A DNA stretch of 64,000 nt from Psilocybe cubensis (lineage: Eukaryota). The DNA is taken from contig CM039007.1 in assembly GCA_017499595.2 (NCBI GenBank), forward strand, positions 2,790,001 through 2,854,000, read 5' to 3'. The translations under genes were made by a program, and so were the position numbers. Below are positions 1-59,479 of the stretch, one piece after another. Each line of letters begins with the position of its first letter. The first letter of the stretch is position 1. Below the pieces are notes generated by a model. The model made no database searches. It worked only from the letters and a program-made list of their open reading frames with translations, and had not been told where the DNA came from.

Positions 1-3000
1 CCACAACACCCTTGAAGTGGTTACGCGCCAGACAGAGTAATAGCGTTGATTCCGAGGGCCCGCCCTGGGTGAAAGCAGATGACGGCGTGTCACTGATAGA
101 AGGGGTGTTGATGTTTCTGTGCGACTTAGAGTCGGCTCTGAGGATGCGCTTCCTGGCAGAGCAGAGCATTGCCGGCCAGTCCTTCAAGTCATCTACAAGC
201 TACAATAATTGTTTGAAAATTAAGAATTAACATTGAGTGACTTCATGATCGCATACCTTGAACCGTGAAAATATTTCCTTAGTTCCTGTGCTGGCCTGTA
301 TTTCATTCAGGGGCACGGTCACCGGCAACAATGGTCCAAAGGCTGCTGGCCACAACGCTACGAGATCGAGTAGACGGTATGCTGCAAATAAGCTACCACT
401 AGTCCCTACCACTTTTTATGATAAAACAATAGCAAGTGTTAGCACACTCTTTTTATAACTGTTGATGGTTTTATCACAAAGCAAAATAATGAGAAGACTG
501 GTCTATTTCTCATAAGTTTACTTCGCTTTTTCAAAGCCTTTTTCATTAGATAATACCCTTCTTTCTCATTATCTTTAGGGCGCTTTTTCATTACCTTTTG
601 ATTAGATACTAGCCTGGTTATTTGATAAGATTGTTCTACATCAATATATCTTATCTTTGCTTGGTCATTTCTGATGCCATGCCATCAAATCAGGAACACT
701 GTGGGTACTTCTAGGCCATGTCTATCAATCCATCAAAGCTATTATTAAATAAACTTTTCTCTCCTCGGCCCCTTGGTCTATAAATAGTGCTCATCCTATG
801 CTACTTTTGTGCATTGCTGGCAATGGATTGGACGCTTTTGGGGGCATTTCTGGACCGTTTCCCTTGGTGTTTTTTGGTAGACCTATAGTTTTAAAGTGTC
901 CCAATCCGAATATGAAATCAGAATTGCAATATCTTTACTCATTATTGTGCAATTAAGCGTACGATGTTTTGATCAAAAAGCGCACCTTGAATAGCACCAT
1001 CCAGGGGCTGGTATGCACCCTTCTGACTATGCCATTATTTTGTATTTATATTAGACAGAGTACATGCCAAGTTTCAGCTTAATTGGGGCAGTGGAACCTA
1101 TTGAACTAGCATATGCATCCTACCTCTCCTCCTACCCCTTGTATGAATACCTTCCTGATCAGATATTTTCAAGCCCAACTGGGATAAAGTAGGCGCTTAT
1201 TATACCAATTTTTAAAGCCTAAAATATTGGTGAAACTTCAAGATTTAAGGGTACTACCCCCTACTCCCTCCAGAACTTGTGTATTTTATTATGGGATAGG
1301 ATGGGCTCTCAGACCATTAAAAGACATGTAGATCCACTACTAACAGTACATAGAGTCCAAAATTTACCCTTGAAAGCCCTCTTCAACAAGGGAACATACT
1401 GATTTAAGGGGGGGTATGAGGATAGGTATGGTAGGTTATTGATCAGGCCATATCTCTATAAATACATTGTCATAAATCATATTGTTGACGTCTACAGATA
1501 CCTATAGTTGCCCCCTAAATATCTTTCTTAGGCTGAAAAATGATCCGTCCATTAGCTGAGATGCTGCAGAGGGAATACCATTCTTCATCAAAATGCATAG
1601 TATTTTCGCATTTACCATATATAAATGATTATGATCAGGAAATATAAAAGCAGGATAGTATAGCCTCAGAATGCAGCTTTCCAGAACATCAAGGATGTTG
1701 TGCATCGGACCAGTGGTTGCTGAGATATGAAAAGAAAGGTGTTGAAGAACCCATCAGAGACCCGGATGGATATTGGCCTTTATTTATGCTTTGTTTGTGG
1801 TCACCTCTTTGGCCTTTCTCCGAGATACATTTTGACATATCTCAGCTCATACTCATCGGATTTCCATGAGTCTATATACCACAGATAGGTGTCATTTAGG
1901 GCTACACAGCCGTATAGTTTATGTATTTTATAAGTGTTATCTTTTACATCATATTTCGCTTTTCCTCCATTTTTGAACAACAATGCTTCTTCTTCTTGTA
2001 CCATCTTGTTAAGTGTTCTGGTCATTTGGCAGTATGAATATAATATGTAGAGGACCTTAGTAGCTATCTGTGAATGTAAGATATGTGCATTCTGGTGAAG
2101 TATAAGCGGTGATATGGTCATATTATGTTGTACATCCAATACCTTTTTATTAGGCTCATGACCAAGGTGTTCCCCTTCACTCTGAATGCTTCAAAGATAT
2201 GTATTGCGTCTGTGGTACTATATAGAGCAGATTTACATACCTATATGTGCTGGGAATGGCCATTCTACCCCATAATAAAATATACAAATTCTGGAGAGGA
2301 TGGGGGGTAGTACCCTTAAATCTTGGAGTTACACCAAGATTTTGGGCTCTAAAAATTGGTATAATGGGTGCCTACCCAGCCCTAGTTGGGCCTAAATTTA
2401 TCTAGTCAGAAAGGCATTTATACAAGGGGTAGGAGGAGAGGTAGGATGCATATGCTAGTTCAATAGGTTCCACTGCCCCAATTAAGCTGAAACTTGGCAT
2501 GTACTCTGTCTAATATAAATACAAAATAATGGCATAGTCAGAAGGGTGCATACCAGCCCCTGGATGGTGCTATTCAAGGTGCGCTTTTTGATCAAAACAT
2601 CGTACGCTTAATTGCACAATAATGAGTAAAGATATTGCAATTCTGATTTCATATTCGGATTGGGACACTTTAAAACTATAGGTCTACCAAAAAACACCAA
2701 GGGAAACGGTCCAGAAATGCCCCCAAAAGCGTCCAATCCATTGCCAGCAATGCACAAAAGTAGCATAGGATGAGCACTATTTATAGACCAAGGGGCCGAG
2801 GAGAGAAAAGTTTATTTAATAATAGCTTTGATGGATTGATAGACATGGCCTAGAAGTACCCACAGTGTTCCTGATTTGATGGTGGCATCAGAAATGACCA
2901 AGCAAAGATAAGATATATTGATGTAGAACAATCTTATCAAATAACCAGGCTAGTATCTAATCAAAAGGTAATGAAAAAGCGCCCTAAAGATAATGAGAAA

Positions 3001-3520
3001 GAAGGGTATTATCTAATGAAAAAGGCTTTGAAAAAGCGAAGTAAACTTATGAGAAATAGACCAGTCTTCTCATTATTTTGTTTTGTGATAAAACCATCAA
3101 CAGTTATAAAAAGAGTGTGCTAACACTTGCTATTGTTTTATCAAAAAGATGGTAGGTACCACTCAAGCTACCCGCCTGCTCCCATGTAGCCGAGGTTACG
3201 CAGGGTGTCTCTACGATGCTGTTCTGAAGGGCAGCCAAGCTTTGCCTATACTTGATGGCCGCTCGCATGCTCGATGATGAAACATCGTAATTCAAAAAGG
3301 TGAAGTCCTCATATCGTCGGAGGAAATCCACCATCCTCTACAGAAACTTGATATTAGTACCATAAATGGCAATCCAATTAAGACCTACGCGGAGTGGGTG
3401 CGACTCTGGCAACATGTTTTCCAGAGTCTGACGAACGACCTGCGTTTCGAAGGGAAACGCCAGAATTTCTTCAGCTTGGAGTCGGGCAACGGGGGAAATC
3501 TTCTGGGCTTGCACTACAAA
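1..3520 (-). pseudogene. Uncharacterised gene (partial, runs off window) interrupted by a foldback element
   Basis: Exon ...VARLQAEEILAFPFETQVVRQTLENMLPESHPLR splices (GTAGGT..TGTAG, about 3339-3388) to RMVDFLRRYEDF...EQAGSLSG. Removing 401-3163 restores an open frame into SLFAAYRLLDLVALWPAAFGP. 5' end not resolved. Confidence 0.6.
401..3156. mobile_element. Non-autonomous foldback / long-TIR element, 2.76 kb
   Basis: 405-1144 is a near-perfect reverse complement of 2420-3156, with weaker inverted similarity continuing inward (e.g. GCTGAGATATG near 1719 vs CATATCTCAGC near 1836). Flanked by direct repeat TACCACT (394-400, 3157-3163). No credible ORF. Confidence 0.9.
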
Positions 3521-3704
3521 ACTTCAACGTCTCACCCTGCATTCTATTTCTTTGGGTACTTACTTTTTTTTGTGTGTTTTTTTCTGGTGTCTCAAATTTT
3601 CAACTAGATGAATTTTAACTGAACGAAAACTATTATAGAGTGTCTAGAGTATTGTCTATGTCTATTTTATTAGAATGTATGTTAAATCTATGGGGAGGGG
3701 TACT

Positions 3705-3971
3705 ACGCTATGACGAACGGAAAGAAAAACAATCAAGTTGGAAACACGCTATTTCCGGAGCGATTCTTTAGGGTAGGTTTCCCGTCCTGAAGTCACGAGT
3801 TGGTTAAAAAAACGCCCCCTTACATCAGCCGCATCACGGTGATGCGGCTGATGTAAGGGGGCGTTTTTTTAACCAACTCGTGACTTCAGGACGGGAAACC
3901 TACCCTAAAGAATCGCTCCGGAAATAGCGTGTTTCTCACCATATGTTTTCTCTTTCCGTTCATCATAGCGT
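3705..3971. repeat. Palindrome: perfect 97-bp arms (3741-3837 / 3839-3935), 1-nt spacer, imperfect extension to 3705/3971
   Basis: Read directly: GAAACACGCTATTTCCGG...GCCGCATCAC-G-GTGATGCGGC...CCGGAAATAGCGTGTTTC. Lies between divergently oriented genes. Confidence 0.97.
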
Positions 3972-4176
3972 CTTATCATAGTAATAGGTTGTGTAGTATC
4001 TAAAAATAAATTATCACAAGTTAAGATGATAAATTAAGTGAGATGAACATCGATTAACAGTCTTTAAGACCCACAATGTCTAGTTATAAATGCAGACGAC
4101 TTGACAGCCTAGGCAACCGCACAGTGTGTACTAATCCAACCCTCCATCTAATCACTAACTTCAGGGAAATTTAATT

Positions 4177-6435
4177 ATGATCTCAAAAAATCAGGACATT
4201 AATCCCTTCATAGACATTGAAGCAGCGGTTTCCGATGATGATGAAAGTTCGGAAGAGCTTGATTATAAAGGGGGCCAACTACGTATGTTCCAATAATTTA
4301 CATATATTCTGCTCAATATGTACTGATGCTAATGGGTTCTGACATACAGTGAATGATAACGATGAATACTCTGAGGATGAGGAACGTGTTGCACACTCTC
4401 GGCTATATCATGCCATGCAAAATACAGATAACGCTGATGAATGGAGCGATTTGTTGCCCATGCTTCTGCCTTCACGCATGAAAATTCGTCCTGACAATGA
4501 TATAGAGCCATCTAGTTCACAAGAACTTATACAGAAATATGGCAATCCCCAACCAGGAGGACTTGGTGATAATAATTATATGCCTTCCGCGACTGATATC
4601 ATGTATGAAATAGGTTGCAAGGTACGCAAAAATAATATAAGTCTTCAGTCAGCATTTATTGATCACCTTACGAGTGATAGGTTGGACGCAAAGAGGCCGT
4701 CGCTTTCAAAATTATGCAGATGTCAACGAACCCTACATTTCCCATCATCCTTGCCCGGTCTGTCTTCGCTCAATCCTCAATTCCTGGGAGAATCTACGTC
4801 GAGGCGCCATCAATGCAACATGCGCATACGTTAGCCTGCCTCGTTAGAGAGCTTAATCCGACACATTTAGTTAGGCTATCCTCGGAGAGATGTATGGAGA
4901 TCCTATCTCATCCCCCACCCTCACGCCCTGAAGACCAATCGTGGGTCAAGGTTGCTGGAAAGCGTAAGGCTTGGACAACCTACGCAAATGCTACCGGCCT
5001 TGTGTTCACATTCCAGGGTCAGAAAAGTGTTGTTCTTATCCCCAGACCTCCGGACAACATCAAGAAATCGCACCTCGACAGGATATTCCAGGATGGATTT
5101 ATTATCACGGATTTCGACGCCATCGATCTCAAATATCTTTCCAATGTCCTCCCAACATCGTCCGAGTTGGAGCAATTTCGCGAGTGTCCATTTGTAACGA
5201 CGGAGACCTTAGCGCAAGCCTCGAAAGCCATCTCCATGACTCAACTGAAACGATATGATCAAGTCAAAATTATTGGTGGAGAATACTTAGGTCTTTTTGG
5301 AACGGTCAAGAGTGTTTCTGACGCTGAGGTGGAAGTGCACATCCCCTCCCAAGGTATAACACAAGCAGTTGCACTACACGATCTACGTGCAGCTTTCCAG
5401 ATAGGCGATAGTGTTGAAGTCGTTGAAGGGGATCACAAAGATCTCCATGGATGGGTGTCAGACTTTGATGGAAGATCTGTTTGTATTATCGCCCCAGAGC
5501 ACGAACGCGAAGTAGGTGAACTGTCATTCTCTTTGTCTCAGTAGTGTTCAACACATTTTTCAGGTCATTGTGCCCATCCACACAGTCATATTCTACGTCC
5601 CCCCTGCCCATGCTACTCTTCGCCCGCGAAAGCGTCATTCGTCAAAGCTTGGAGAAAGAGACCACAACGACGTCTATATAGGTTTGAGTGTCATCGTTGT
5701 CGGGAATAATACATTCAAGGGGTACTATGGCATCGTTAAAAGCACTACCCCCGACGGCTTTGCAGACGTTGAGCTGGAAGCTCGTAACCAGAGGGTGGAA
5801 CGTATTAAAATATCACATTTAATTATACAGTATGTGGTTTCACTTGATTCGTTGACTGTCAGGTGCTTACTGACATTGTTTCAAGCAACCAAGAACATAT
5901 AAATTCCGCTCAAGACCCCGGGCCTTCTGGTGGAGCAACTCCAATGCCGTCCACAGTAGCAAGTTTTCTGTCTCCTGCATGGAATCCGTATTCAGCAATA
6001 CCTGTATACTCGGCGGTGGAAATCGCAGAACTACCCTCAACCGTCGCTCACTGGCTAGATACGAAATACGATAAGCTGAAAGGATTACGATTAAAAGTCG
6101 TAGACAAATCCAAGGGCGACCATCAAGTGGCGATGGAACTTCTCAGCCTTACCGACGATACTGCCCACCTAGCATTACTGGGATGTACACTGACATTACC
6201 GAAATCAGTGTTGTTTCCAATTCATCCTGTAAAAAAGGACGACTTCGTTACACCGCTTGAGGGCGATTCAATGGGGATTATATTCAGGATACGATCAATA
6301 GACAAGGATATTTGCGTTGTATATAAATATCCCGTTACTCGTATGAAACGCGGTGATACATTCCCAACTTTTCCGACAACATCTTTGATTCAAATCTTCC
6401 CCCCGTCCCGTGGTGTCAAAGTTGTAAATATGTAG
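4177..6435 (+). CDS. Divergent Spt5-like protein (acidic N-terminus, NGN domain, several KOW motifs), about 674 aa
   Basis: Exons 4177-4282, 4350-4621, 4681-5511, 5564-5829 and 5886-6435 join in frame with GT-AG introns. Motifs: NPFIDIEAAVSDDDE (Spt5 N-term), YEIGCKVGREEAVAF...SSIPGRIYVEA (NGN), YDQVKIIGGEYLGLFGTV, IGDSVEVVEGDHKDLHGWV and IGLSVIVVGNNTFKGYYGIV (KOW), plus GGATP..SPAWNP (C-terminal-repeat-like remnant). Confidence 0.8.
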
Positions 6436-6602
6436 GGTGCAGCATTACTTGTATCTCGAACACGGACTTGTAGACATATACGGGTTTTATGTCATTCTAT
6501 TTAAGTGTATTTCGGCAATCAACAGTGCTAATGGTTCGTAATGTGTTGATCGTCTTGAACTTAAGCCACCACCACCACACCAAATTGTTGCCTATCTTTA
6601 TC

Positions 6603-6958
6603 ATGAACCATTCCAATAGCAACAACGCTTCGCAACCTCAAAGTCGCCGCCTCCCTAGCATACCCGAAGAGGCAGAGTTCTTCGTTTTAGGTCTATTTTC
6701 ATGTTTTAATCCACCTTCCTCTAGAATCAAGGCATAGAGGCCGTTAAAAAGGCTCTTGACCAATTTCAACTCACTGAACAGAGGTGTCTAGAAGTTCAGG
6801 CAGAGCTACGTTGTTATATGGACGACATTATGCGAGCATATAAATCCAATGAAGATCTTCTGTTTGAAACCCAGCTCGAAATCGCCCGTCTACGGGTATC
6901 CCTCATTAGTCGGGGAATACCTATTCTAATGCACCCTCAGGATAATCCGCGATCATGA
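6603..6958 (+). CDS. Small putative coiled-coil protein (about 105 aa), element cargo
   Basis: MNHSNSNNASQPQSRRLPSIPEEAEFFVL, short intron about 6691-6731, then GIEAVKKALDQFQLTEQRCLEVQAELR...LEIARLRVSLISRGIPILMHPQDNPRS*. Confidence 0.5.
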
Positions 6959-7229
6959 TAGGTGCAGTCTTTTCCCCTCTGAGATGTAACTTTACTTAAC
7001 TCTAAGTAGGACATGGAATCTGACTATAATGTATATGTGATATATTGTAGTAGATAGGGGTACTATTTCAGTACCTGTAATTTCTATATGGCACGATATA
7101 TTTTTGACTGATGTCCGTCGCCTTAAATTTTGAAAAGAGGCTAATTTCGCATACCTCCGGATCGTAGCTTGACATAATTCACCACCCCTTGTCTCTATTT
7201 CTGCATTACAACCGTCAAACCAGCCCAAT

Positions 7230-9971
7230 ATGCCACCTAAAGGATCCAAAAAGAAAAAGGCGGTTGTCAATGCCACGGTTGAAGGTATCATCTATATATC
7301 CTCATTACATCCGCATACTTAATGTTTTATCCATCTAGGACAAGAGGTTGAACAGGGTCCGAGCTCCGTGGCAGAAAACGAGCCACCTCAGGCTCCTGAA
7401 GCAGGTCTGTACTAGCATTTTCTTTGTTGAGATTCACTGAACTCCTTATTAAAAAGACCCCAATGGCCGTCCTATCCGAAGCACCCGTGGTCTTGGTGGA
7501 GTAAATGCTCGGCAGGAGAAAACATCTAACATCATTTTTATTGACTTTGAGAAGGCTGGGAAGAGGAAGTCAAGGGCCGCCAATGTGGATACTAGCGCCA
7601 TGCCTGAAAATGAGATGGCGCCTCCCTTGAAGAAACCTCGCAATGGGGTGAGTCTACTGTTCTAATCTTAAATTTGCTATCTTCCAAGCACGTCTAGGTT
7701 ACCGTTGTGTTGCATGTAGGTCCCCCTATTCAAATGCAACCAAGGCCAACGCCTTCAGTTGCTCCTTGGGATGTCCAACAAGTCCAACCAAGCCCACGAC
7801 AATCTCAGGGTGCCCCCCCTCCTGTCCAGATCCAACGTGCAGCTCAGAGAAATCAGGAGCACTCAGAGCTTGATCATGCTGTCCAAAGACCCACTGCCCC
7901 CATCCAGCGCCCCGCTGCTCCGGTACAACAGCCAGCACATCCTGTCCCGCGCCCCGTACAACATGCAGCACATCCTGTCCCGCGCCCTGTACAACACGCA
8001 GCAAATCCTGTTCAGCGTTACGCTGCCCCTGCGGCAGAGAATTCTGTCCAATACTACGATGCCCCCGTACAACAACCAGTGCATCCTGTAACACAACATG
8101 CCCCCGTACAACAGCCAGTGCATCCAGCAGCCTATAACGCCCACCAAGAGGCTAGCATCAGCCATCAAGACGAGGAGGAGCAACAAGATTACGAAGGCAT
8201 AGAGCAGGAGGAAGATGAGGAGGAGGAAGAGGGGGATAGTGACGGTGAAAGGCGATCTGAGGAAGCATCAGGGGACAAATGCATGCAAGGAATTGATGAA
8301 GAGAATATTGGGGATGAAGAAGCTCTCCAATATGTCGACGGTGATGAAGGTTACGACGACGCGGGTCAAGATGATGAAGAGCCTGCTGCCCAGCGTTGGT
8401 TTAACTCCACCTTTATGTCGTGTTTGCTTACCACCTATGTTTGACAGTGGTTGATGAAGTTTCCGATGATGAAGAGGAGAGGAGAGCAAGGGCATTGCTC
8501 CGCCAGCCTTCTCCCCATGTAATCATTTCTCTGCTGTATTTAATGTCTAGCTAATGTATTATTGATATAGATTGTGGAAGTAGAGGATGTTCTTCAAGAA
8601 CACCGTTGTCGTAATCGGGCGAACAAGCCACCTCGCCCTGAGGCATTGCGCAAGGCGGCTGTTTCGCAAGGAGCCGTATCCCAAGGTTTGACAAGGGAGA
8701 ACAACGAAGCATCTGACGATGATGAGGTGCTTGGTGAGGCACACATCGCTCATAAGAAGTCCAGTACTTCTTCTGCTAGGGAAGTATCCAAGCATTCAGT
8801 TGCATCCTTTACTGGTTACTGGAAAGATGTGCTCAAAATTGCACGCAAACTGATGTGCCTGTATGTAGTAGAGGAGGTCCCCTTTCCCACTCGGGAAAAT
8901 CACTTATTAGTCGCCGATGGATGTGTGAAGATGGCAGTAACCGTGTTTGAAAGAATGAACACGGATAAAGTGTTGCCTGATAGTAAGTTCTGTCTTCTGT
9001 GATTTTAGTTAATTGGTTTACATAACTTTGCAGAGAAAAAAACGCTCCTAGACAGGAATACCGCCGTAACGGTATATTTTTAGTGTGTTCTTTTAAGGAT
9101 ATCGTACTAACGTGTCTGTTCTCATTAGGCATTTGTCTACGCGTCAACCTTCCGGGGAAGACTGAAGACGATGATCAGACCCCTGGTCAAAAATGCGTAT
9201 GGCCTCGAAGTCCCGTCGGAGGTCATCGCCGCGAACCCCAATATGTTTGAAAATCAGATGGGGGAGATCGAATACATCAAGGACAGGGTAGCATATTGGC
9301 TACTCAATGGTAAATACCACCGGGGTGTTGCCAAAACCCGAGTGAGTTCGCCGTCCATTTTACCTGGCTTACCACTCATTGATTTGTTTCCAGTATCACG
9401 ATGTCCCATTTGGACATCCTTTTGTGAAGAAGATCTGTCTGGACTTCTTCTACCATCCTACAAAAGGGGTTGCAGTCCCCATCAAAGGTCTGGAGACAAA
9501 GACGGATTTCTTCAAGACATTGCTTCCCCACAAAGCATTTGCGCTTGTGGCCAGTTGTGTAGTTCTGATTTCTCTCCTGCTATTGGCACTGCCTTGCTAA
9601 CAAGCATTTTGCTGTAGATCCACAACTGTCTTGAGGAGTGGAGGGATGAGATTGACCCTGCAAGAGGTGGTCCGTGTTCGGGTATTGAATTCAAGGGAGA
9701 GGAGTACTCCCTGAGGTATGATGCCTGCATGTTGGTTGCAGCAGAGGCAGAGAAGGATACCTTGAACCAAGGTCCTTGCTTGGCTCGCTTATGTAGGGAA
9801 GTGGCTGAGGAAGGATGGTGTGTATCTTTTTTTATTCATTTCTTTCTTTGCATCATTTAGATCTCCATAATCAGTGCTATTATGAGGCCTACGAAGAACC
9901 CCCCCAACCCTTATAGGATGACTCTCCATTCTATCCCACAGGAGGAACTAGATTACGGTCCAGAAGGGTAG
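7230..9971 (+). CDS. Multi-exon protein with long P/Q-rich and acidic disordered N-terminus and C-terminal DUF6532-like domain
   Basis: Starts MPPKGSKKKK. C-terminal exons give YHDVPFGHPFVKKICLDFFY..LPHKAFALVASC..IHNCLEEW..IEFKGEEYSLRY, resembling agaricomycete DUF6532 proteins (recognised from memory). Many short GT-AG introns. Confidence 0.65.
7933..8012 (+). repeat. 33-bp coding tandem repeat (AHPVPRPVQHA), about 2.4 copies
   Basis: CAGCACATCCTGTCCCGCGCCCCGTACAACATG followed by a near-identical unit and a partial third. Confidence 0.8.
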
Positions 9972-10239
9972 TTGGGTGAATGAGCGGGGCAGCTGCCGGG
10001 TGTGGATTAGAAGATACCATATTTAGATCGTCACGTATTAATAGTTATGCATCTACTAATAGAAACATGTTTGGTCCGATCCAAACATAGATTATCTATT
10101 TTTAAAATTGCCCATTTTAGTCAAAAATGGTTCGGTTTTCAGTGTGATATTGGCACTTGCAGGAATAGCCACACAACACTATACAAATGAAAGTGGATAC
10201 TATATATGCCTTTGTACCTATTTGCAGTGTGTTATGATG

Positions 10240-10311
10240 TGCTACAAATCTGTGGTAGCATGCTACAAATCTGTGGTAGCATGCTACAAATCTGTGGTAG
10301 TATGCTACAAT
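10240..10311. repeat. 21-bp tandem repeat (TGCTACAAATCTGTGGTAGCA), about 3.4 copies, subterminal to the large element
   Basis: Read directly; each unit is partly self-complementary (TGCTAC...GTAGCA). Confidence 0.9.
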
Positions 10312-10585
10312 TTGTATGTCAGTTGTATACAGAGGGGTATGGACCATGGTAAGCATGCTACACGCCGCTACACAGCACTCGCGTTACAATACAGATCACT
10401 ACAGAGTACCATGTCACGTTGGTACCAAGCTACAGGTACATCAGTGTGTGTTACCCAAATGGGACCGTTACTATGGGCACTACAGAATTACGTATCACTA
10501 CGGATCATTACCTACTTGGCCCCGGTATTGCTGATGTGTTTGTGTCATTTACAGAAAATGTGTATGTTTTACTAACACCGGACAA

Positions 10586-10796
10586 CACTGCCGGCGACAA
10601 CTACTGTAAGTTAAACAAACAGCTATTGTTTTACATGTTTTATGTAAGTTCAGCTGTAAGTTCGACATACATTATGACTTACACTCAAATAATTTCCATA
10701 AAAGGAGATTATTTGAGTGTAAGTAGGCTGTATGTTGAAATTACAGCTGAACTTACATAAAACATGTAAAACAATGGCTGTTTGTTCAACTTACAG
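10586..10796. mobile_element. Internally deleted, inverted, truncated copy of the 456-bp CACTG element, inserted in the TIR
   Basis: Starts CACTGCCGGCGAC. 10586-10693 is the reverse complement of 11205-11312, and 10694-10796 is the reverse complement of about 10875-10978. Confidence 0.7.
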
Positions 10797-10856
10797 GCCG
10801 ACCAAACACAATATGTCTTTGCCGAGTGTTTGTTTTTCATACAGGTGTGCTGTATG

Positions 10857-11312
10857 CACTGTGGGCGATGACTGCTGTAAGCTGAACAAACAGCCATTGT
10901 TTTACATGTTTTATGTAAGTTCAGCTGTAAGTTCAACATACAGTCTACTTACACTCAAATAATCACCTTTTATGGAAACTAGCAGTGCCCCCGTGCTTTG
11001 CACGGAAAGTTGGGCTGCAATTCATCATGCTATTTCCCCAGTGTTTTTGCACGGAAAGACGGGAGGTAATTTATCACGTTATTTCCCCCGTGTTACCATG
11101 TTTTCAGGCCCGATTACAGTGTTTTTCAGCCTCAATTACAACGTTTTCAGGCATATTTCGAATTTTTGGGTGATCAAAAAAGCAATGTTGGTTTGATTAT
11201 ATTGATTATTTGAGTGTAAGTCATGATGTATGTCAAACTTACAGCTGAACATACATAAAACATGTAAAACAATGGATGTTTGTTTAACTTACAGTAGTCG
11301 TCGCCGGCAGTG
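10857..11312. mobile_element. 456-bp CACTG MITE (second family) with 3-bp TSD ATG, inserted in the TIR of the large element
   Basis: Ends CACTGTGGGCGATG / CGTCGCCGGCAGTG with about 107-bp imperfect TIRs. ATG at 10854-10856 and 11313-11315. The empty site GCTGT-ATG-TTGAAC is seen at about 22446-22459. Confidence 0.85.
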
Positions 11313-11545
11313 ATGTTGAACTTACAGCGAAACTTACATAAGACATGTAAGTTTTCTGCTGTATGTTTAACTTACAGCGGTCGGCGCCCGCAGTGTGTCG
11401 AGAGCAAGTTTGAATCAATGTGGTGCTTCAGGGGTGACAGACAATGCAGAAGCCATTCATGGGAATCAATGTCATCCATTAACAGTAATTTGTAGAATAG
11501 TATTTAAACTGTGGTCGTTGAGGTCTAGGGAATTTGAACCTGTTT

Positions 11546-11623
11546 ACGCGTGGGAACTCACCAAATGTCACGGGAAGCAGCAGAGCGCGCTCTTTCTCTT
11601 CCCCCACAATTCAGGTTACGCGT
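11546..11623. promoter_or_regulatory. Two MCB-like (ACGCGT) elements upstream of the Rtt106-like gene
   Basis: ACGCGT at 11546-11551 and 11618-11623, about 185-260 bp before the ATG. Function inferred from yeast G1/S promoters. Confidence 0.35.
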
Positions 11624-11806
11624 AAACTCATAGGCAACTTGTAACCTGACGGATTATTGGCACATCTGGAGCCTTAAACTCGCACCAGCTTAGTTGTTGT
11701 GAGTGTTTCTCAAAAATCAAAGTCTAGGTGTTGTACAATATGTGCTGCATGAACAATATATTCTAATCCACTTAATATCATCTCCAGACCTTAACCCCTT
11801 TTTTGA

Positions 11807-13968: not shown

Positions 13969-14046
13969 AGATCCTTCAATGAACCGTTTGCTTATTGTTT
14001 ATTGACAAAATATATGAGAAACTATATTACTGTCACGGATTCTCTC

Positions 14047-14520
14047 TTAAACTGCCTTGTTGCAACTGAATGATTCGACGTTGTTGTAAAGCGATGGGTC
14101 AGGAAGCGACATGATGGTTCCAGAGAGGGTCGTTCCAGGGCCTTCACATCCTTGGAATCTGAAAAAAGACGTCTATCCAATGTCCAGTTAAAGTGGTGAA
14201 TGTACATACTCGAAGAATGTGCAAGTGAATCCTGATGCAATCTCAACACTCTCTGCCCTGTCAAGCCAGTCGCCTGGCAGTGTGCTGCAGACAGACTGAA
14301 CGAGGCCGTCGGGGGAGTATGCTGAGCCTCTCAGATTGGTGTCATCAAAAAATACCACAGACAACGCTGCGAGGTCGTTCTAACAGAACGGTGGTTAGTG
14401 CAAACCCTTTGATATATCGCAGTAGTATCAACTTACACGAGCAATGACGCTCGAGCGTGCAACAGCGGCCGTAGACGCGATGGCCACAAGGAAGCTGGTG
14501 AATTTGGTGGTGAACTGCAT
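14047..14520 (-). CDS. Small secreted beta/gamma-crystallin-like protein, copy 1 (121 aa, 4 Cys, 3 exons)
   Basis: Signal-peptide-like MQFTTKFTSFLVAIASTAAVA. Two Greek-key-like repeats: FFDDTNLRG..WLDRAESV and FFEFQGCEG..LYNNVESFSC. Confidence 0.75.
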
Positions 14521-15494
14521 GTCGAGTTGGCTGAGTCGTTGACTTGCTGAACCAGTAAAGAGACGAAACACCCTTCTTATACTTTTCAATTAGCACAAAA
14601 ATTCAGTAGTAGACGTGAGGTCAGCATGCACAAGGTACACTCGGGAGAAGAGACTGAGCGTACTTTGCAATGTAATTCAAAGGATGAATAATGGCGAATC
14701 CATGGACGCCTGTTAGAACTTGCAACTCTCAGTAATGGTCCCTGTAGCACACAATGCTCGAGCTAAGTATGTAAACAATTTTAAACAATTTAATCAGATT
14801 CTGAGGCAAATGAGTGAAGAAGCAGTGGTACGGATAAAAGCGTCAGTGAATATAACAGTTTTATCTTTTCTTGTTGATCGACAACTCAAGGGAATCTCCT
14901 ATTTCCTATCTGCTGAGTTTTATTATGACACATTGAATAGGCCAAATTGTACTTTATATAATTTTGGACGTGCTATTTTCAAACGATTGAGCATAAAGCG
15001 AGAGCGCAGAGTCAATAAGCATCAGTCGAGTTCTTCTCCCGATACATATGTCTTCTACCCGAAGCTATATAATTCCTCCGAATCCCTGACACAGCGGAGA
15101 TCAGATGGCTGGTTCATGTTCAGAGTCATCTGCTTTGTAATTTGAATGGAAAATCAATGATTGTGTTTGAAAATGGCCCTATTCAATGACTGTAGTTGTT
15201 ACTGTAACAATTCGACGAATTACCATGCCATGGATGCTATTGTCGGCCTGACATAACATTTTAAACAGGAGTCCATGTCGCTTGTCTAAACATAGTCCAT
15301 TCGGAAGAGACAGACGCTCATTTTGATTACACCCGAATATCCTGGTACCATCTCCAGACACTTGTGAGCTGGAGGGGTCTGCTGGAATCATCACGAACTC
15401 ACCAGCTGCTTGAAGTTTGTCTAAATCTTGCGAGCCGCCTACTACAATGTCAATATTTTTTACAATTAAAATCTGCTCCTGGTCATCACGAGAA

Positions 15495-16722
15495 TGACCT
15501 GCAGCGACACAAGCCTCTAGCTCTAGTGGTCAAGCTTTCGAATAACTTATTCAGAAGGTAGAATCAATTTTAACGACTTATTTATTGACGATACAGATCC
15601 CACAGCTAACCATTACATGTTCACGTCACAGTGGAAAGCAACATCAGATAGCCTTGTTGCAGCTGAACGATTCAATATTATCATACAACTCTGGGTCCGG
15701 GAGCGTCTCTACGATTCCAGACAGCGTGATCCCAGTGCCATCGCATCCTTGGAATCTAAAACATTGTTCAACCATGGGTATAATTAAGAGATATGTCTCT
15801 ACATGAGATTACGCACTGGAAGAAGGTGCAACTGAATCCAGTGGCGATATCCACGCTCTCGGCTCTGTCGAGCCAATCGGGTGGCAGCGTGGTGCATACA
15901 GATTGGAGGAGGCCGTCGGGGGCGTAGGCAGAGCCTGTCAGGCCAACATCGTCGAAGAAGATAATGGACAGTGCGGCGAGTTCATTCTGCATATCCACAG
16001 TTAGTACAATTTATACACGCAATTACGACGTTGGACCTTACACGGGCGATGACGCTTCCGTGGGTGGCGATTACAGCCGAGGCAATGGCGACGAGGAGGG
16101 TGGACAGTTTGGTGGTGAATTGCATTGCGCTGTAGCTTGCTAACTTGTTGGTTTGACTTGCTGAGGAGGTATCTGCGCAGATGCACCCTCTTTATACCAC
16201 TTCATGAATGGACTAGTTTCATAAAGATAATAGAGAATCTGACAGTGCATGAGGCTCATCAAGTAGAGAATCTTACAAAGGTCAGCAATACGGTAGGCCG
16301 AGTGAGCCACGGAGAAACTATGAAGGTTATGATCCTGATTCAAAACATGGATTTGAGCAAGAAGGTGCTCCAATTTAATTGCATACAATAGTAAAGAACG
16401 TAATTGTTCACAAAGTATACATCCTAGGAACAATGGATAAGCAAACATGTTTTGGATGCAGGCTGTAAAAAAGAAAATATCACAGCTTCTGTTCTTCGTA
16501 CTATTCGTCCCATTTTGTGAAGCTTGTTGGTGGTCCATAATCGTGAATAACGCGTTTGAAATTGGATCAGAATATCAAGAGCTTATTTTGAGGTGCTACA
16601 CGAGCTGAAGACGAGCCATGAGTGCGCAAACCTCGTCCACTAAAATAGGCTGTGATGTTAGGTGATGTTGTCAAGCATCAGTCGATCATGAAACGACCAC
16701 TTCTTCTCCCGATACATATGTC
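15495..16722. repeat. Segmental duplicate, direct repeat of about 57973-59224
   Basis: High identity over more than 1.1 kb (offset about 42.5 kb), including gene and promoter. Confidence 0.9.
15644..16125 (-). CDS. Small secreted beta/gamma-crystallin-like protein, copy 2
   Basis: MQFTTKLSTLLVAIASAVIATHGSVIAR / NELAALSIIFFDDVGLTG..WLDRAESVDIATGFSCTFFQ / FQGCDGTG..LYDNIESFSCNKAI*. Confidence 0.75.
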
Positions 16723-16838
16723 TGGATGCAAGCTTTAAAAAAGGAAATATCACAGCTTCTGTTCTTCGTACTATTCGTTCCATTTTGTGAAGTTTGTTGG
16801 TGGTCCATAATCGTAAATAACCCGTTTAAATTTGCATC
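16453..16838. repeat. Local direct repeat of about 115 bp (16453-16568 and 16723-16838)
   Basis: TGGATGCA..GAAATATCACAGCTTCTGTTCTTCGTACTATTCGT..TGGTCCATAATCGT occurs twice. Confidence 0.85.
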
Positions 16839-21680: not shown

Positions 21681-22735
21681 CACGGCGGGATATTCAGAAA
21701 ATAGAAATTCCACAAAGTAGGTAATCAAATGTTACAACATACTTGAAATATATTGGTCCATCCGTCTTTCACATTCATTTGAAACATAATGCTGCCAAAT
21801 ATACTAAGTTTCTTACCACATACAAAGGTGCTTTATATTTCAAATTGAAAGGAACATCATATCAGTAAACACTGCGGGCGCCGACTGCTGTAGGTTAAAC
21901 ATACAGCAGTAAACTTACATGTCTTATGTAAGTTTAGGTGTATGTTCAACTTACAGCATATGTGTCGGGAAAACAAAAATTTAACAAAGACATATTGTGT
22001 TTGGTGGGCATACAGCCACCAAACACAATTGCTGTAAGTAGCCTGTAAATAGAATAAACACCTAAATTACACAAATTGTGTTTGTCCGGTGTTAGTAAAC
22101 CATACACATTTTCTGTAAGTAATACAAACAGCACTTACTGTAAGTAAAAATTACACACAAAGAAAACAATTTGTGTATGTTATACTTACACAAGTTTTTC
22201 AATTCATTTAATGGTGCAAGTCTGACATACACAAATAGTGTTCTTTGTGTGTAAATTTTACTTACAGAAAGTGCTGTTTGTGTCATTTACAGAAAATGTG
22301 TATGTTTTACTAACACCGGACAAACACAATTTGTGTAATTTAGGTGTTTATTCTATTTACAGTCTACTTACAGCAATTGTGTTTGGTCGGCATACAGCCA
22401 CCAAACACAATATGTCTGTCGAGTGTTTGTTTTTCATACACGTGTGCTGTATGTTGAACTTACAGCGAAACTTACATAAGACATGTAAGTTTTCTGCTGT
22501 ATGTTTAACTTACAGCGGTCGGCGCCCGCAGTGAAAATGGCAGGTATTTACTGATATGAGGTTCCTTTCGATTCAAAATATAAAGCACCTTTGTATGTGG
22601 TAAAAAACTTGATATATTTGATAGCATTTTATTCCAAATGAATGTGAACACGGACGGCCCCAATATATTTCCTGTATGTTGCAACGTTTGATTACCTACT
22701 TCGTGGGAACTCTATTTTCTGAATATCCCGACGTG
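21681..22735. mobile_element. CAC..GTG-terminated palindromic MITE (about 190-bp diverged arms) with 3-bp TSD TCA; hosts the 664-bp MITE at its centre
   Basis: 21681-21869 is an imperfect reverse complement of 22547-22735. TCA at 21678-21680 and 22736-22738. Confidence 0.8.
21870..22533. mobile_element. 664-bp CACTG MITE, copy 1, TSD AAA
   Basis: CACTGCGGGCGCCGAC termini, about 300-bp imperfect TIRs rich in ACTTACA/TGTAAG motifs. AAA at 21867-21869 and 22534-22536. Confidence 0.92.
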
Positions 22736-23449
22736 TCAGGACTGGGGACTTCTAGTTTGAATTGATCTAGGATATCACATCAAAATTTTAACAGTAATTT
22801 AGTTGAATTATTATACCGATGAATGGTATTATTTTTAAACACAAGCACTGAATGCTATCCTAGATGTTCCTGAACTCGAACCAACCATCTGCTTCCCGCT
22901 GTATCAGGGACTCGGAAGAATTATCTAGCTTTGGGGAGAAGGCACGTGTATCGGGAGAAGAACTGTTAGCTTTATGATTGACTGATTATTATTGACTCAG
23001 CGCTCTTGCTTTATGCTCAATCTGTTTGAAAATAGCCCGTCCCAAATTATCTAAAATACAATTTGCCTTGTTCAATGTGTAATAATAGAACCCAGAAGAT
23101 TGCAGATAGGAAATAGGAGAGTCCCGATGCAATTTTTATATTCACTGACGCTTTTATCCGTACTATTGCTTCTTCACTCATTTTCCCCAGGTATTGACTG
23201 AACTGTTTGTATATTGAGATCGAGAAGACAGGGTCCCATTACTGAGAGTTGCAAGTTCAACAGTCCATGGATTCGCCATTATTCATCCTTTGAATTACAT
23301 TGCAAAGTACGCTCAGTCTCTTCTCCCGAGTGTACCTTGTGCATGCTGACCTCACGTCTACTACTGAATTTTTGTGCTAATTGAAAAGTATAAGAAGGGT
23401 GTTTTGTCTCTTTACTGGTTCAGCAAGTCAACGACTCTGCCAACTCGAC

Positions 23450-23923
23450 ATGCAGTTCACCACCAAATTCACCAGCTTCCTTGTGGCCATCGCGTCTACG
23501 GCCGCTGTTGCACGCTCGAGCGTCATTGCTCGTGTAAGTTGATACTACTGCGATATATCAAAGGGTTTGCACTAACCATCGTTCTTTTAGAACGACCTCG
23601 CAGCGTTGTCTGTGGTATTTTTTGATGACACCAATCTGAGAGGCTCAGCATACTCCCCCGACGGCCTCGTTCAGTCTGTCTGCAGCACACTTCCCGGCGA
23701 CTGGCTTGACAGGGCAGAGAGTGTTGAGATTGCATCAGGATTCACTTGCACATTCTTCGAGTATGTACATTCACCACTTTAACTGGACATTGGATAGACG
23801 TCTTTTTTCAGATTCCAAGGATGTGAAGGCCCTGGAACGACCCTCTCTGGAACCATCATGTCCCTTCCTGACCCATCGCTCTACAACAACGTCGAATCTT
23901 TCAGTTGCAACAAGGCAGTTTAA
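23450..23923 (+). CDS. Small secreted beta/gamma-crystallin-like protein, copy 3 (near-identical to copy 1)
   Basis: Exons 23450-23533, 23591-23760 and 23812-23923 give 121 aa in frame. Confidence 0.8.
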
Positions 23924-24056
23924 GAGAGAATCCATGACAGTAATATATTTGTTCATATGTATTGTCAATAAACAATAAGCAAATGGTTCATTGAAGAATC
24001 TGCCACGCTTAAGGCAACGTGGTTAAAGAGAATCGATCTCTACATAGCGTTAAAAT

Positions 24057-25843
24057 CTACATCAATTGAAATCTATAATTCCTGACAATCAGGCGTTTCA
24101 TACCTTTACCCTTTGAATTATCCGCGGCTTCCACCGCTGAGTATTCGTCTTGCGGAGAACATCCTGCGTCAGATATCTGAGTAAGCTGGCACTCTATATC
24201 GGACTGGAAGACAAGTCGAGAGACAACTTCAGTGCTGTCATAACTTGGTGGTAAATATCTGTTTTGTAAACTAGGGTCCCTTAAATTGAGCATCAACCTG
24301 GAGATCATCGAGGACGAAAGTCTGTTAAAAAGTGGCATCAGATTGCTTTCTAACCAGAAGCCGTCTAATAGAAATGCGAACACATTAGCCAGTGTGGCTG
24401 TCATTCCTCGAAGATATGGCTACAAATTCCTTCGTTTAGATTTGAGCATGGTTTTCTTTTATGACGTACTGGGAATGCCTGGAATGAAATTAATCAGATA
24501 ATATTTGACCGTTGTGCGACGTTCTTTGGACATACATGAAAGGATAGAATCACAGAAATGGCCATCAAGACCATGACCCTGATCCACGCGTCATTAAATT
24601 AACGATATTGTGTAAAAAAGGTTATAATACCCGAAGTACATAGCGCCTGAGGATATGGACGATTACCAGGTTGAGACCATGAAGATACGTAAAATGATGG
24701 TCAGTGACTCACCATCGCGAATTAGAATATCAAGTATAGAAAAGCCATTACGTCGTATCCTGAGGGACTGGTATAGAGTTAAGAAAAATACGAGAGCATC
24801 GAAGACTACGTGTCCAGTCCAGGCTTCTGTCACTCCTATTTGCGAAAAAATTGCCCAGAATGAGTAACCGTTTGGACCATGACCAAGGCGCCTACCCTTC
24901 GTGCTGGTTTGTAAATGGCAATAATTAATAAATTCAATACATTTGATGGTAAAGAGATGACTATATTACATACCTGTCATCTGGAAGAGGAAGAAGACAC
25001 CCCACAGGTAGCAATTGAGACACCAAATGCGGGTCCCGGGTTTTAACCATAAACAATGACACCTAAAGACTTGAATTCAAGATATATAACAAGGAAATGA
25101 CGAGCTCAAGACCTACCACTCCATATACCGTAACAGATAGAGCGACGATACATAGAAGCGCCAGGATGCGCCGACTTTTTCCATACAACGCATATGTTCT
25201 GATTATCGATACCCCTATCAAGAAGGACACTTTGGTATTGAGCGCAGAGAAATGGGAAATATATACCTCCGACAATTAATTGCAATGTGACAATTAAATA
25301 TTCATTGTAGTAGTTGATGTTCAAGCACCTGCGGTGGCTCTTAATATCAGCGTTGAAGCAAGGGTAGAAAAACTCTCACGTCTATGCATCAAATGCCATA
25401 TAATGTCACAACTTCGAAGAACCACCCAGTACTTGCAGAACTTACCTGTAGGCGATCTGAAATTCCAGGCCAGTTCCAAAAGTACAAAAATATGATTGGA
25501 ATGTGTCCAAGAACGGCCGTGTATCGATTAACGAAAAAGAGAATGAAGGCTGGGGTGTATTTGGACTGAGGTTGCCAGTAAAGATCGACTTCATTTGGCA
25601 AGGTGAGAATGTAATCATAGTAGAGAATGACTATGTAAAGTAAAAGATTAAACATCCTAACTCATGGGATTTTAACTGAAAGAGAAGGCTGCTCGCTGAC
25701 CAAATGAAGCACATAAAAGACAGTTGTAAGTAAAACTGCGAACACAGAATGAAATATTTATATTAGCAGATAAGGGGATTGAGAAGAACGACTTACAGTT
25801 GTCCTTGGAGTAATATATTTTGGTTTATCGAAGCCTCAGACAT
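24057..25843 (-). CDS. DUF6533-domain multi-pass membrane protein
   Basis: ILYYDYILTLPNEVDLYW..FILFFVNRY, IIRTYALYGKS, ILIRDGAMYF and MISRLMLNLR, typical of the agaricomycete family. Confidence 0.8.
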
Positions 25844-56341: not shown

Positions 56342-57005
56342 CACTGCGGGCGCCGACCGCTGTAAGTTAAACATACAGCAGAAAACTTACATGTCTTATG
56401 TAAGTTTCGCTGTAAGTTCAACATACAGCACACGTGTATGAAAAACAAACACTCGACAGACATATTGTGTTTGGTGGCTGTATGCCGACCAAACACAATT
56501 GCTGTAAGTAGACTGTAAATAGAATAAACACCTAAATTACACAAATTGTGTTTGTCCGGTGTTAGTAAAACATACACATTTTCTGTAAATGACACAAACA
56601 GCACTTTCTGTAAGTAAAATTTACACACAAAGAACACTATTTGTGTATGTCAGACTTGCACCATTAAATGAATTGAAAAACTTGTGTAAGTATAACATAC
56701 ACAAATTGTTTTCTTTGTGTGTAATTTTTACTTACAGTAAGTGCTGTTTGTATTACTTACAGAAAATGTGTATGGTTTACTAACACCGGACAAACACAAT
56801 TTGTGTAATTTAGGTGTTTATTCTATTTACAGGCTACTTACAGCAATTGTGTTTGGTGGCTGTATGCCCACCAAACACAATATGTCTTTGTTAAATTTTT
56901 GTTTTCCCGACACATATGCTGTAAGTTGAACATACACCTAAACTTACATAAGACATGTAAGTTTACTGCTGTATGTTTAACCTACAGCAGTCGGCGCCCG
57001 CAGTG
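56342..57005. mobile_element. 664-bp CACTG MITE, copy 2 (opposite orientation to copy 1), TSD TAA
   Basis: Same length and apparently same sequence as the reverse complement of 21870-22533. TAA at 56339-56341 and 57006-57008. Confidence 0.93.
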
Positions 57006-57396
57006 TAAGGGTAGTCTCTCCTAGACAGACTTCGATATGATGTGACATATTCACGATCAGGTTAAGGGTGTCTCTGGGAGACTGATTTATCAAACTTCAA
57101 ATCGAATGTTAAACGGAGCTGATTTACGATACTTCAGTATATTCTGAGATGAGATAGAGAATAAGATAAAGGGTGTATCTAAAGAGTTCGGTGTTTTCAT
57201 CAATTAATATAAAAGGGCCTAGTAACGCGTTTGGGCTACCCTGCGCTTTAGCAATTTGAAAGAACCTGAAACTTTCATTTCCATAATAATTCTCGACTGT
57301 CTTTATTAGGGACCAATCAGAGCAACTTCCCTAATTATTGACCATACAACTATGATTGTATTTGATTTAAAATATATAACTATCATAACCATTTTC

Positions 57397-57840
57397 TTAG
57401 ACGGTTTTATTGCAGCTGAAGGAGTCGACATCAATATAGAGCGAGGGGTTAGGAAGGGATATAATGTCTCCAGACCGGGGGTATCCAGGATCTTTACAAC
57501 CTTGGAATCTGAGAATAAGATTATTATCCAATGTCCAGTTAAAGGGGTGAATGTACGTGAAGAAGTGCAAACTGAATCCTGATACAATCTCAACACTCTC
57601 GGCTCTCTCAAGCCAGTATCCAGGACTGAGTGTGCTGCAGACTGACTAAACAAGGCCGTCGGGGTAATATTCTGAACGTCTCTTAACACGCTGCGAGGTT
57701 GTTCTAAAAGAATGACTTTTAATGAAAACCCTTTGAAGATCGTGGTATCAACATACACGAGCAATGTCGGTCGAGCGTACAACAGCGACCGTTGAATCGA
57801 TGACCAAAAAGAGGCTGGTATATTTGGCGGCCAAATGCAT
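57397..57840 (-). pseudogene. Beta/gamma-crystallin-like secreted protein, copy 4, pseudogene
   Basis: Same exon layout, but exon 2 has a deletion giving NNLAAC* and a further TAG in the canonical frame (PDGLV*). Confidence 0.75.
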
Positions 57841-58142
57841 TGTAACTTGACTTGTCGAGTTAGCTGAATTGCTAACTTGCTCAACCATTATAATTATGTC
57901 GAGGTTTGCTTCGAATCAAACTATAGTGTATTCTGCTCCTCGTGATTATGTATCCTTGACGTTAGTGAGCAAATGACCTGCAGCGACACAAGCCTCTAGA
58001 TCTAGGCCTAGAGCTTGCGCATAACTTTTTCCGAAGGTAGAATCAATTTGAATCATTTGGTTATTGAATGTACAGGTTCCACCACTACGCTACTGGCTGT
58101 CATCCATCCCATTACATGTTCGCTTCATAATAGGAAGCAACA

Positions 58143-58624
58143 TCAGATAGCCTTGTTGCAGCTGAACGACTCAACATTGTTATACAACTCTGGGTCGGGC
58201 AGCGTATCTACGATGCCAGACAGCGTGATCCCAGTGCCATCGCATCCTTGGAATCTAAAACATTGCTCAACCATGGGTATAATTAAGAGATATGTCTCTA
58301 CAGGAGATTACGCACTGGAAGAAGGTGCAGCTGAATCCAGTGGCGATATCCACGCTCTCGGCTCTGTCGAGCCAATCGGGTGGCAACGTGGTGCATACAG
58401 ATTGGAGGAGGCCGTCGGGGGCGTAGGCGGAGCCTGTCAGGCCAACATCGTCGAAGAAGATAATGGACAGTGCAGCGAGTTCATTCTGCATATCCACAGT
58501 TAGTACAATTTATACACGCAATTACGCCGTTGGACCTTACACGGGCGATGACGCTTCCGTGGGTGGCGATTACAGCCGAGGCAACGGCGACGAGGAGGGT
58601 GGAGAGTTTGGTGGTGAATTGCAT
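58143..58624 (-). CDS. Small secreted beta/gamma-crystallin-like protein, copy 5 (near-identical to copy 2)
   Basis: Same length and exons as 15644-16125; exon 2 peptide identical. Confidence 0.78.
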
Positions 58625-59479
58625 TGCGCTGTAGCTTGCTAACTTGTTGGTTTGACTTGCTGAGGAGGTATCTAAGCAGATGCACCCTCTTTATATCACT
58701 TCATGAATGGGCTAATTTCATAAAGTTAATAGAGAATCTGACAGTGCATGAAGCTCATCAAGTAGAAAATCTTACAAAGGTCAGCAATGCGGTAGGCCGA
58801 GTGAGCCACGGAGAAACTATGAAGGGTATGATCATGATTCAAAACATGGATCTGAGCAAGAAGGTGCCCCAATTCAATTGCATACAATAGTAAAGAACGC
58901 AATTGTCCACAAAGTATACATCTTAGGAACAATGGATAAGCAAGCATCGTTTTGGATGCAGGCTGTAAAAAAGAAAATATCACAGCTTCTGTTCTTCGTA
59001 CTATTCGTCCCATTTTGTGAAGCTTGTTGGTGGTCCATAATCGTGAATAACGCGTTTAAAATTGGATCTGAATATCAAGAGCTTATTTTGAGGTGGTACA
59101 CGAGCTGAAAATGAGCCACGAGTGCACAAACCCTCGTCCACTAAGATAGGCTGTGATGTTAGGTGATGTTGTCAAGCATCAGTCGATCATGAAACGACCA
59201 CTTCTTCTCCCGATACATATGTCTTCCGCACAAACCTATATAATTCCTCCGACACTCCCTGATACCGCGGGGATCAAATGGTTCGCTCGAGTTTAGGGAC
59301 GTCTACTACCTTGGAGGTTGAATGAATCGTATTCAGTGCCTGTGTTTAAAATAATACCATTCATCGGTATAATAATTCAACCTAAATTGGTGTTAAGTAT
59401 ATTTATGTGAGGTCGTAGGTCAATTCAAACTAGAGGTCCCAAGTCACTTGCCCCATGTTGTGCTTTAAAAATAGTCCAC

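Follow-up and report, generated by a model that had tools for sequence, protein, structure and literature searches.

What kind of Spt5 is encoded near the left end of a 64,000-nucleotide stretch of the Psilocybe cubensis genome (GCA_017499595.2, contig CM039007.1, positions 2,790,001 to 2,854,000 of the forward strand; hereafter the window, with coordinates counted from its first letter)? The gene in question lies on the plus strand and ends at position 6435, and it could be the general SPT5, a specialised paralogue, the cargo of a transposon, or a relic. Among RNA polymerase factors, Spt5 is to our knowledge alone in being conserved across all domains of life, and as a rule it is encoded by one essential gene. 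In canonical Spt5 (the large subunit of DSIF), NGN and the KOW1-linker sit on the clamp of RNA polymerase II (Pol II) over the upstream DNA, KOWx-4 and KOW5 are located by the RNA exit and the stalk, and the phosphorylated C-terminal repeat region (CTR) recruits further factors. The reading favoured here, with a probability of roughly 0.55, is that the gene is an intact six-exon 'mini-Spt5', i.e., a specialised Pol II-binding paralogue from a diverging family, which would be used in place of canonical Spt5 at a subset of loci.

Gene model and domain order

A first-pass annotation made from the letters alone had proposed five exons, spliced to about 674 aa with an intact reading frame. The five-exon model (4177-6435, plus strand) was reproduced in its coordinates, its four GT..AG introns (67, 59, 52, and 56 nt), and its length (2025 nt, or 674 codons and a stop). 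The frame thus held, and the start was revised. An alternative six-exon model has an extra 5' exon at 4076-4123, joined at 4195 through a 71-nt GTGTGT..CAG intron (4124-4194), and yields 684 aa. The closest database protein, P0001 (proteins are referred to by P numbers; hypothetical protein JR316_0004106 of Psilocybe cubensis, 329 aa, 97% identity, labelled 'NGN domain-containing protein' in UniRef), begins with a 16-residue exon, and the same exon is encoded by the window at 4076-4123. The 684-aa model was preferred because its collinear alignment with P0001 is free of gaps (10 of the 329 residues differ) and because the upstream exon restores a basic K-x-R-R-L motif, which many relatives carry immediately before the acidic motif. 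By this alignment, the six-exon model appears to be the better-supported one, and the ATG at 4177 is a possible start. The features of the gene are as follows, with exons 2 to 5 numbered as in the five-exon model.

4076..4123, plus strand: probable first coding exon, 16 codons, Met and then basic K-C-R-R-L; absent from the first-pass model, placed by collinearity with P0001
4177..4282 (from 4195 in the six-exon model), plus strand: acidic Spt5 N-terminal exon, N-P-F-I-D-I-E-A-A-V followed by a D/E run
4350..4621, plus strand: exon 2, acidic/helical N-terminal region, with the first NGN strand from ~4601
4681..5511, plus strand: exon 3 (277 aa), with the remainder of NGN to ~4866 and KOW1 with linker helices at ~4942-5241
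~5257-5391 and ~5404-5505, plus strand: KOW2 and KOW3, respectively, of exon 3 (Pfam, AlphaFold2, and canonical profile)
5564..5829, plus strand: exon 4, a linker and then a KOW5-type domain at ~5711-5797 (Pfam KOW5_SPT5 and profile)
5886..6435, plus strand: exon 5, with a single CTR-like remnant T-P-M-P ... S-P-A-W-N-P at ~5938-5988 and the stop TAG at 6433-6435
~6049-6432, plus strand: C-terminal region of exon 5, counterpart of two small beta-barrels in P0007 and collinear with the C-termini of relatives

All five introns of the 684-aa model are GT..AG and keep the frame, so that 684 codons are open over six exons. The G+C content is 0.461 in exons against 0.357 in introns. Stop-to-stop frames of at least 277 codons, the length of exon 3, are rare in the window (9 of 5698), and the length of this exon is more than chance.

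The protein is a true Spt5 homologue. With Pfam, exon 3 alone matched KOW2_Spt5 (2.9e-13; 49.9 bits, cutoff 28.9), KOW (6.9e-8), and KOW5_SPT5 (1.1e-7), and exon 4 matched KOW5_SPT5 (9.3e-7; 28.7 bits, cutoff 27), while exons 2 and 5, scanned separately, matched no family. Spt5-NGN scored just below the cutoff in exon 3 (4.9e-4; 20.4 bits against 22.4) because an intron splits the NGN domain; in P0001, which is about 97% identical and has the entire domain, the score was 31.5 bits and above the cutoff. When PDB sequences were searched with exon 3 by phmmer, Komagataella Spt5 (5xon_W) was matched at 7.8e-10, across the KOW1-linker to KOW3.

A canonical profile was prepared from 17 Spt5 proteins (P0106, P0110, P0122, P0129, P0132, P0141, P0149, P0150, P0151-P0153, and P0155-P0160) and compared with the 684-aa protein. 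It matched in three separate pieces, all collinear with the canonical Spt5 order: residues 16-227 (Spt5_N, NGN, and the start of KOW1; 59.8 bits), 270-420 (linker, KOW2, and KOW3; 82.7 bits), and 443-536 (KOW5 and the first CTR repeats; 21.5 bits). Canonical positions ~480-655 (P0110 numbering), which hold KOWx and KOW4, were skipped, and the same skip was seen in the three relatives tested (P0007, P0020, and P0090). KOWx had no Pfam match in the protein, and KOW4_SPT5 gave a weak one only, over the third KOW (22.8 bits, cutoff 27). The F-x-D-x-E-A motif is common to the family members and canonical Spt5 in the alignment, and residues 1-110 contain 26 D/E against 11 K/R.

The CTR is reduced to one SPAWN (residue 531) and one TPM (residue 520), with no repeat array in the 684-aa model and no match to Pfam CTD (PF12815) in exon 5. 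The columns conserved in the family include the Trp, Pro, and Ser/Thr positions of this stretch, which resembles what we take to be the fission-yeast type of CTR repeat. The rest of exon 5 aligns collinearly with the C-terminal ends of P0006, P0007, P0020, P0022, and P0012 (tblastn, 1e-8 to 1e-20; 1e-11 for the P0007 barrels).

Both marks of the Spt5/NusG superfamily, an NGN domain and KOW domains C-terminal to it in canonical order, were thus found, and both marks of canonical Spt5, the KOWx-KOW4 module and the CTR array, are absent. Retained in canonical order are the acidic N-terminal motif, NGN, KOW1-linker, KOW2, KOW3, a KOW5-type domain, and one CTR-like motif, after which a family-specific C-terminus follows. 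The Pfam and profile searches and the motif counts bear out what had been read from the letters, namely an acidic Spt5 motif, an NGN-like domain, at least three KOW motifs, and a single GGATP/SPAWNP remnant. The protein had also been called shorter and more diverged than canonical Spt5, and so it proved: it has about 684 aa where canonical Spt5 has about 1000 or more, it skips KOWx-KOW4, and it meets the profile only piecewise.

Structure models gave the same picture. Exon 3 of the window was folded alone with AlphaFold2 on a 61-row family alignment, and the model had a mean predicted local distance difference test score (pLDDT) of 89.8, with three small barrels after the NGN part. Foldseek gave 46 matches to this model at E ≤ 1e-3, the best of them to Spt5 as present in Pol II elongation complexes (chains 7xn7_W and 9wms_W, 3.7e-14). 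The AlphaFold model of P0007 (Agrocybe chaxingu, 703 aa, 30% identical to exon 3; pLDDT 80.3) consists of a disordered acidic N-terminus, NGN, KOW1 with an insert and linker helices, three more KOW barrels and, after a disordered segment, two barrels at the C-terminus (residues 602-640 and 649-698). Here also the best Foldseek matches were to Spt5 from such complexes (9.6e-28, ~650 columns), as well as the KOW1-linker 4ytk (template modelling score 0.67) and Spt4-Spt5NGN 2exu (root-mean-square deviation 2.9, 94 columns). Identity to Spt5 in the structural alignments was ~20% or less. From their position in the model, the C-terminal barrels may be KOW6-7-like; the match to 5ohq (KOW6-7) does not discriminate, because 5ohq also matches the KOW2-3 pair.

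The paralogue family

Exon 3 was used as the query in a HMMER scan against 1.84 billion representatives, which gave 333 matches at E ≤ 1e-3, 81 at E ≤ 1e-10, and 9 at E ≤ 1e-30. Among the best 150 of the 333, which were listed, identities after P0001 were 44% or less. In a 90%-clustered protein collection, exon 3 had no match among longer proteins and only P0001 at similar length, on one contig; when the collection was searched with the family alignment, 11 proteins passed, i.e., P0007 and 10 Spt5 of the canonical type. Full-length family members have about 650-800 aa, and many matches of about 300-350 aa start inside NGN and look like single-exon gene calls.

Relatives were scanned with Pfam (52 of the 150 listed). 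The full canonical signature (KOW1_SPT5, KOWx, KOW4, Spt5_N or CTD) was present in nine of them, which are among the weaker matches, and the remaining relatives had NGN and KOW only. Two of the relatives have additional C-terminal parts, with a weak RTC4-like match in P0022 (1.4e-4, below cutoff) and WD40-type matches in P0098; both may be merged gene models. Of the ESM Atlas clusters found with exon 3, ten were shown, with KOW1_SPT5, KOW, and NGN labels. Basidiomycota was the commonest taxon in nine (50-168 members each) and the tenth was chordate, i.e., canonical Spt5; taxa are on record for few members.

A quick IQ-TREE phylogeny was built from 41 rows, comprising the window protein and the 40 listed matches of at least 560 aa (P0006 and P0022 entered with the Spt5-like part only, and the 110 matches below that length were not used). 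The nine Pfam-canonical Spt5 proteins fell on one side of a branch with a Shimodaira-Hasegawa-like approximate likelihood ratio test value of 93. The window protein was outside that branch and grouped with the non-canonical P0006, P0007, P0022, P0030, and P0058, in line with the first-pass call of a diverged Spt5/NusG paralogue. Placements inside the tree are unsure because the end branches are long (median 0.86). Judged by sequence, the window gene belongs to a large, fast-diverging, non-canonical Spt5 family, mostly of Basidiomycota where taxa are recorded.

These results bear on whether the gene could simply be the SPT5 of this genome in a poorly conserved form. The UniRef label of P0007, 'Chromatin elongation factor SPT5', speaks for it. 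However, the window protein lacks KOWx, KOW4, and the CTR array and lies outside the canonical branch, and canonical Spt5 proteins are weak matches to exon 3 (about 1e-8 to 1e-7). The family also has many divergent members, whereas canonical Spt5 is, as a rule, one conserved and essential gene. This explanation is extremely unlikely, and a full-length canonical SPT5 is presumably encoded elsewhere in the same assembly.

The alignment also bears on the intactness of the gene. It could be a decaying relic, i.e., a neutral leftover of a past expansion of the family, in which the frame is open by chance. Of the 78 columns conserved at 70% or more among 28 full-length members, 15 are altered in the window protein, including the KOW1 motif, and its KOW1 insert is shorter than in P0007 and P0006, which would amount to a deletion relative to them. 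The closest relative, P0001, is annotated as truncated, and many library matches are fragmentary, though many may be single-exon gene calls. Against decay stand the open codons and the five introns that keep both GT..AG and the frame, the pLDDT of exon 3, and the higher G+C content of the exons. The protein, moreover, keeps 63 of the 78 columns (81%), which is inside the family range of 56-96%. A relic is accordingly quite improbable.

Transposon carriage and surroundings

The first-pass annotation had also called the gene transposon-borne. It sits within the leftmost 11.8 kb of the window, a region rich in repeats and devoid of housekeeping genes, where the following features were found besides it.

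~402-3159, no strand: foldback structure, arms of ~900 nt and an 865-nt centre
3705-3971, no strand: near-perfect palindrome of 267 nt, 133-nt arms that are 93% complementary, 1-nt spacer; ~100 nt upstream of the Spt5-like start codon
~6604-6957, plus strand: small open frame, apparently with one intron, the second part heptad-like/coiled-coil-like; no Pfam match
~7230-9950, plus strand: multi-exon DUF6532 gene directly downstream of the Spt5-like gene, with a basic N-terminus, a P/Q-rich 39-nt repeat (7894-8136), and an acidic tract
10240-10310, no strand: 21-nt tandem repeat
10586-11395, no strand: nest of miniature inverted-repeat transposable elements (MITEs) with CACTG termini, nested copies

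From 11.8 kb on, the window encodes ordinary housekeeping proteins, namely an Rtt106-like histone chaperone, HemD, a mitochondrial carrier, adenylosuccinate lyase, KRE6/SKN1, SNF2, and HMG-CoA reductase. The window is nuclear DNA of a mushroom, and the domains typical of Agaricomycetes in it are DUF6532 and DUF6533.

Cargo of a DNA transposon (e.g., Kyakuja/KDZ, Plavaka, or Helitron) would mean that the protein aids transcription of the element or counters its silencing, as an analogue of the NusG paralogues on bacterial mobile DNA. The family itself is in keeping with this, being multi-cluster, fast-evolving, and lineage-restricted, and so is the setting, a block of ~11 kb with the foldback, the palindrome, nested MITEs, and two more lineage-specific genes on the same strand. 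No transposase, reverse transcriptase, or integrase family was, however, found by Pfam in the 143 frames of at least 90 aa in the whole window, nor in the 50 frames scanned of the 78 with 45-89 aa in 1-11800, and no transposase family was found in the 52 relatives scanned. Neither the gene nor the three-gene block is bracketed by an inverted repeat, although elements without inverted repeats (Kyakuja, Helitron) or ones extending past the left end of the window would escape such a comparison. The MITE terminal motif of the CACTG type has no partner to the left of the gene. By tblastn, the window contains no second copy of the gene, and nothing from 3.9-10.5 kb recurs in it. Among the matches listed, only P0001 exceeds ~44% identity, and it is on one contig.

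The one tie of the family to transposons comes through P0006 (2041 aa), in which a full Spt5-like part is followed by a Tet_JBP match at 1026-1110 (E 6e-7). The score was 29.3 bits against a cutoff of 34.9, a further ~900 residues beyond the two regions had no family match, and a comparison with PDB sequences gave Spt5 and chance-level matches only, with no TET structure. P0006 may be a genuine fusion protein, or the gene predictor may have joined neighbouring genes. In a paper on TET-carrying transposons, Agaricomycete TET/JBP genes are reported to travel as cargo on Kyakuja, Zisupton, and other DNA transposons, with Kyakuja elements described as having no terminal inverted repeats (PMC12730594; Kojima 2025). 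Since Kyakuja elements have no such repeats, their ends would not show in the window. The text of that paper contains no mention of Spt5, KOW, or NusG. DUF6532 was also considered as a link, being listed beside KDZ, Plavaka, and CxC2 as domains in two Ganoderma genomes in the only paper found to name it; it was rejected as too weak.

The call of a transposon-borne gene was not supported by the window, where the frames scanned hold no transposase domain, the gene has no inverted repeat around it, and only one copy is present. Carriage is unproven for the family and unsupported for this copy, and cargo is a rather unlikely explanation.

Several further observations were made on the surroundings. 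Complementarity in the foldback is 99% between the outer arms (415-679 and 2883-3147) and 92% between the inner ones (682-1349 and 2215-2882); CACTGTGGG-like motifs occur within the arms at 697 and 2867, and the frames of the foldback had no Pfam match. The centre of the palindrome at 3705-3971 looks like a strong hairpin, with A and T runs on its flanks. In the gene at ~7230-9950, the DUF6532 match is just below the cutoff (7.2e-5; 23.2 bits, cutoff 24); the relatives of this gene in the ESM Atlas form several clusters, with Basidiomycota as the sole recorded phylum and no transposon domain.

The MITE family (~665 bp) has CACTG...CAGTG termini and subterminal GCTGTAAGTT repeats, and further copies are located at 21870-22533 and 56342-57005. 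These two copies are in opposite orientation and 100% identical over 665 nt, a sign that a CACTA/EnSpm-like transposase encoded elsewhere may have mobilised them very recently. A dispersed repeat of ~1.2 kb is present in at least three places (13969-16838, 22740-24484, and 57370-59526), with frames that had no Pfam match; 57972-59224 is 92.7% identical to 15493-16723, and 22870-24001 is 89% identical to 15123-13969.

Proposed function and meaning

Known paralogues of Spt5 and NusG give the frame in which a role for the mini-Spt5 can be proposed. Plant SPT5L/KTF1, the partner of Pol V in RNA-directed DNA methylation, works through a GW/WG region, the AGO-hook, which defines SPT5L; we know of no Pol V in fungi. 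In the 684-aa protein, GW occurs once and WG not at all, so that no AGO-hook (GW/WG repeats) was found in it. The likeness is in being a lineage-specific Spt5 paralogue, and two papers describe SPT5L/KTF1 as such a paralogue, present beside canonical Spt5 and tied to transposon silencing (PMC3111484, PMC10229537). Paramecium Spt5m is likewise a specialised extra Spt5. It is reported to be a meiosis-specific second Spt5 for non-coding transcription that feeds genome defence (PMC5416832, PMC8934623). Unlike the large and divergent fungal family, Spt5m is one developmental paralogue, which pairs with an Spt4 of its own. Bacterial NusG paralogues (RfaH and relatives) are reported to compete with the general factor for the clamp of the polymerase, thereby redirecting elongation at particular, often horizontally acquired loci (PMC7593976, 10.1101/324400). 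RfaH is of the same superfamily and shares the concept, by analogy only; it has NGN and one fold-switching KOW and is recruited by the ops DNA element, whereas the window protein has several KOW domains.

The mini-Spt5 would most likely take the Spt5 site on elongating Pol II and compete with canonical Spt5 for the clamp, because NGN and the KOW1-linker are the parts of Spt5 that contact the clamp and the upstream DNA. Lacking the repeat array and KOWx-KOW4, it would leave the polymerase uncoupled from CTR-dependent partners. The result would be a specialised rather than general elongation complex on a subset of loci, most plausibly in repeat- or transposon-derived transcription, as with the plant and ciliate paralogues. 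By this analogy, the conflict between genome and repeats is the most likely field of action, because the known paralogues act on non-coding or transposon-linked transcription and the fungal family is large and fast-diverging. The side served could be either the host or the mobile element.

Several points weigh against the favoured reading. The 15 altered columns include the G, D, and A of the KOW1 motif Y-x-G-D-x-A, the Trp of the first NGN strand (Tyr in the window protein), and two KOW glycines. The annotation of P0001 stops after 329 aa, at a point where the window frame continues, so that the P0001 gene may be broken or mis-modelled. No results on binding, expression, or phenotype of family members were found in the literature searched. 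The plant mechanism is not simply transferable because the AGO-hook is missing, and the putative placement of NGN and KOW1 on Pol II is drawn from structures of canonical Spt5.

A bolder account of the whole family can be drawn from the comparison with RfaH. Its members would be eukaryotic RfaH-type factors that move together with, or close beside, mushroom DNA transposons carrying TET/JBP genes and replace host Spt5 on Pol II for transcription through methylated or silenced chromatin, and the copy in the window would have been stranded or domesticated. We regard this as unlikely.

Specialised Spt5/NusG paralogues as such are already known. In the literature searched on Spt5, no description was found of a fungal Spt5 paralogue family or of a transposon-linked Spt5, though an earlier mention is possible, e.g., in a 2014 paper on TET/JBP transposons. 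The family members carry automatic database labels only, and the shortened mushroom family appears to be undescribed.

Extra copies of Spt5 in plants and ciliates, and RfaH in bacteria, redirect the polymerase to special loci, often in conflict with mobile DNA. Several hundred divergent clusters of shortened Spt5 in mushrooms would, if the mini-Spt5 reading is true, be a new case of such redirection, in which the shortened copies keep the polymerase-binding half and have lost KOWx-KOW4 and the phospho-repeat platform. The case would be open to genetics in tractable species, e.g., Coprinopsis and Psilocybe, and it would provide a handle on how the very large transposon loads of mushroom-forming fungi are transcribed or silenced.

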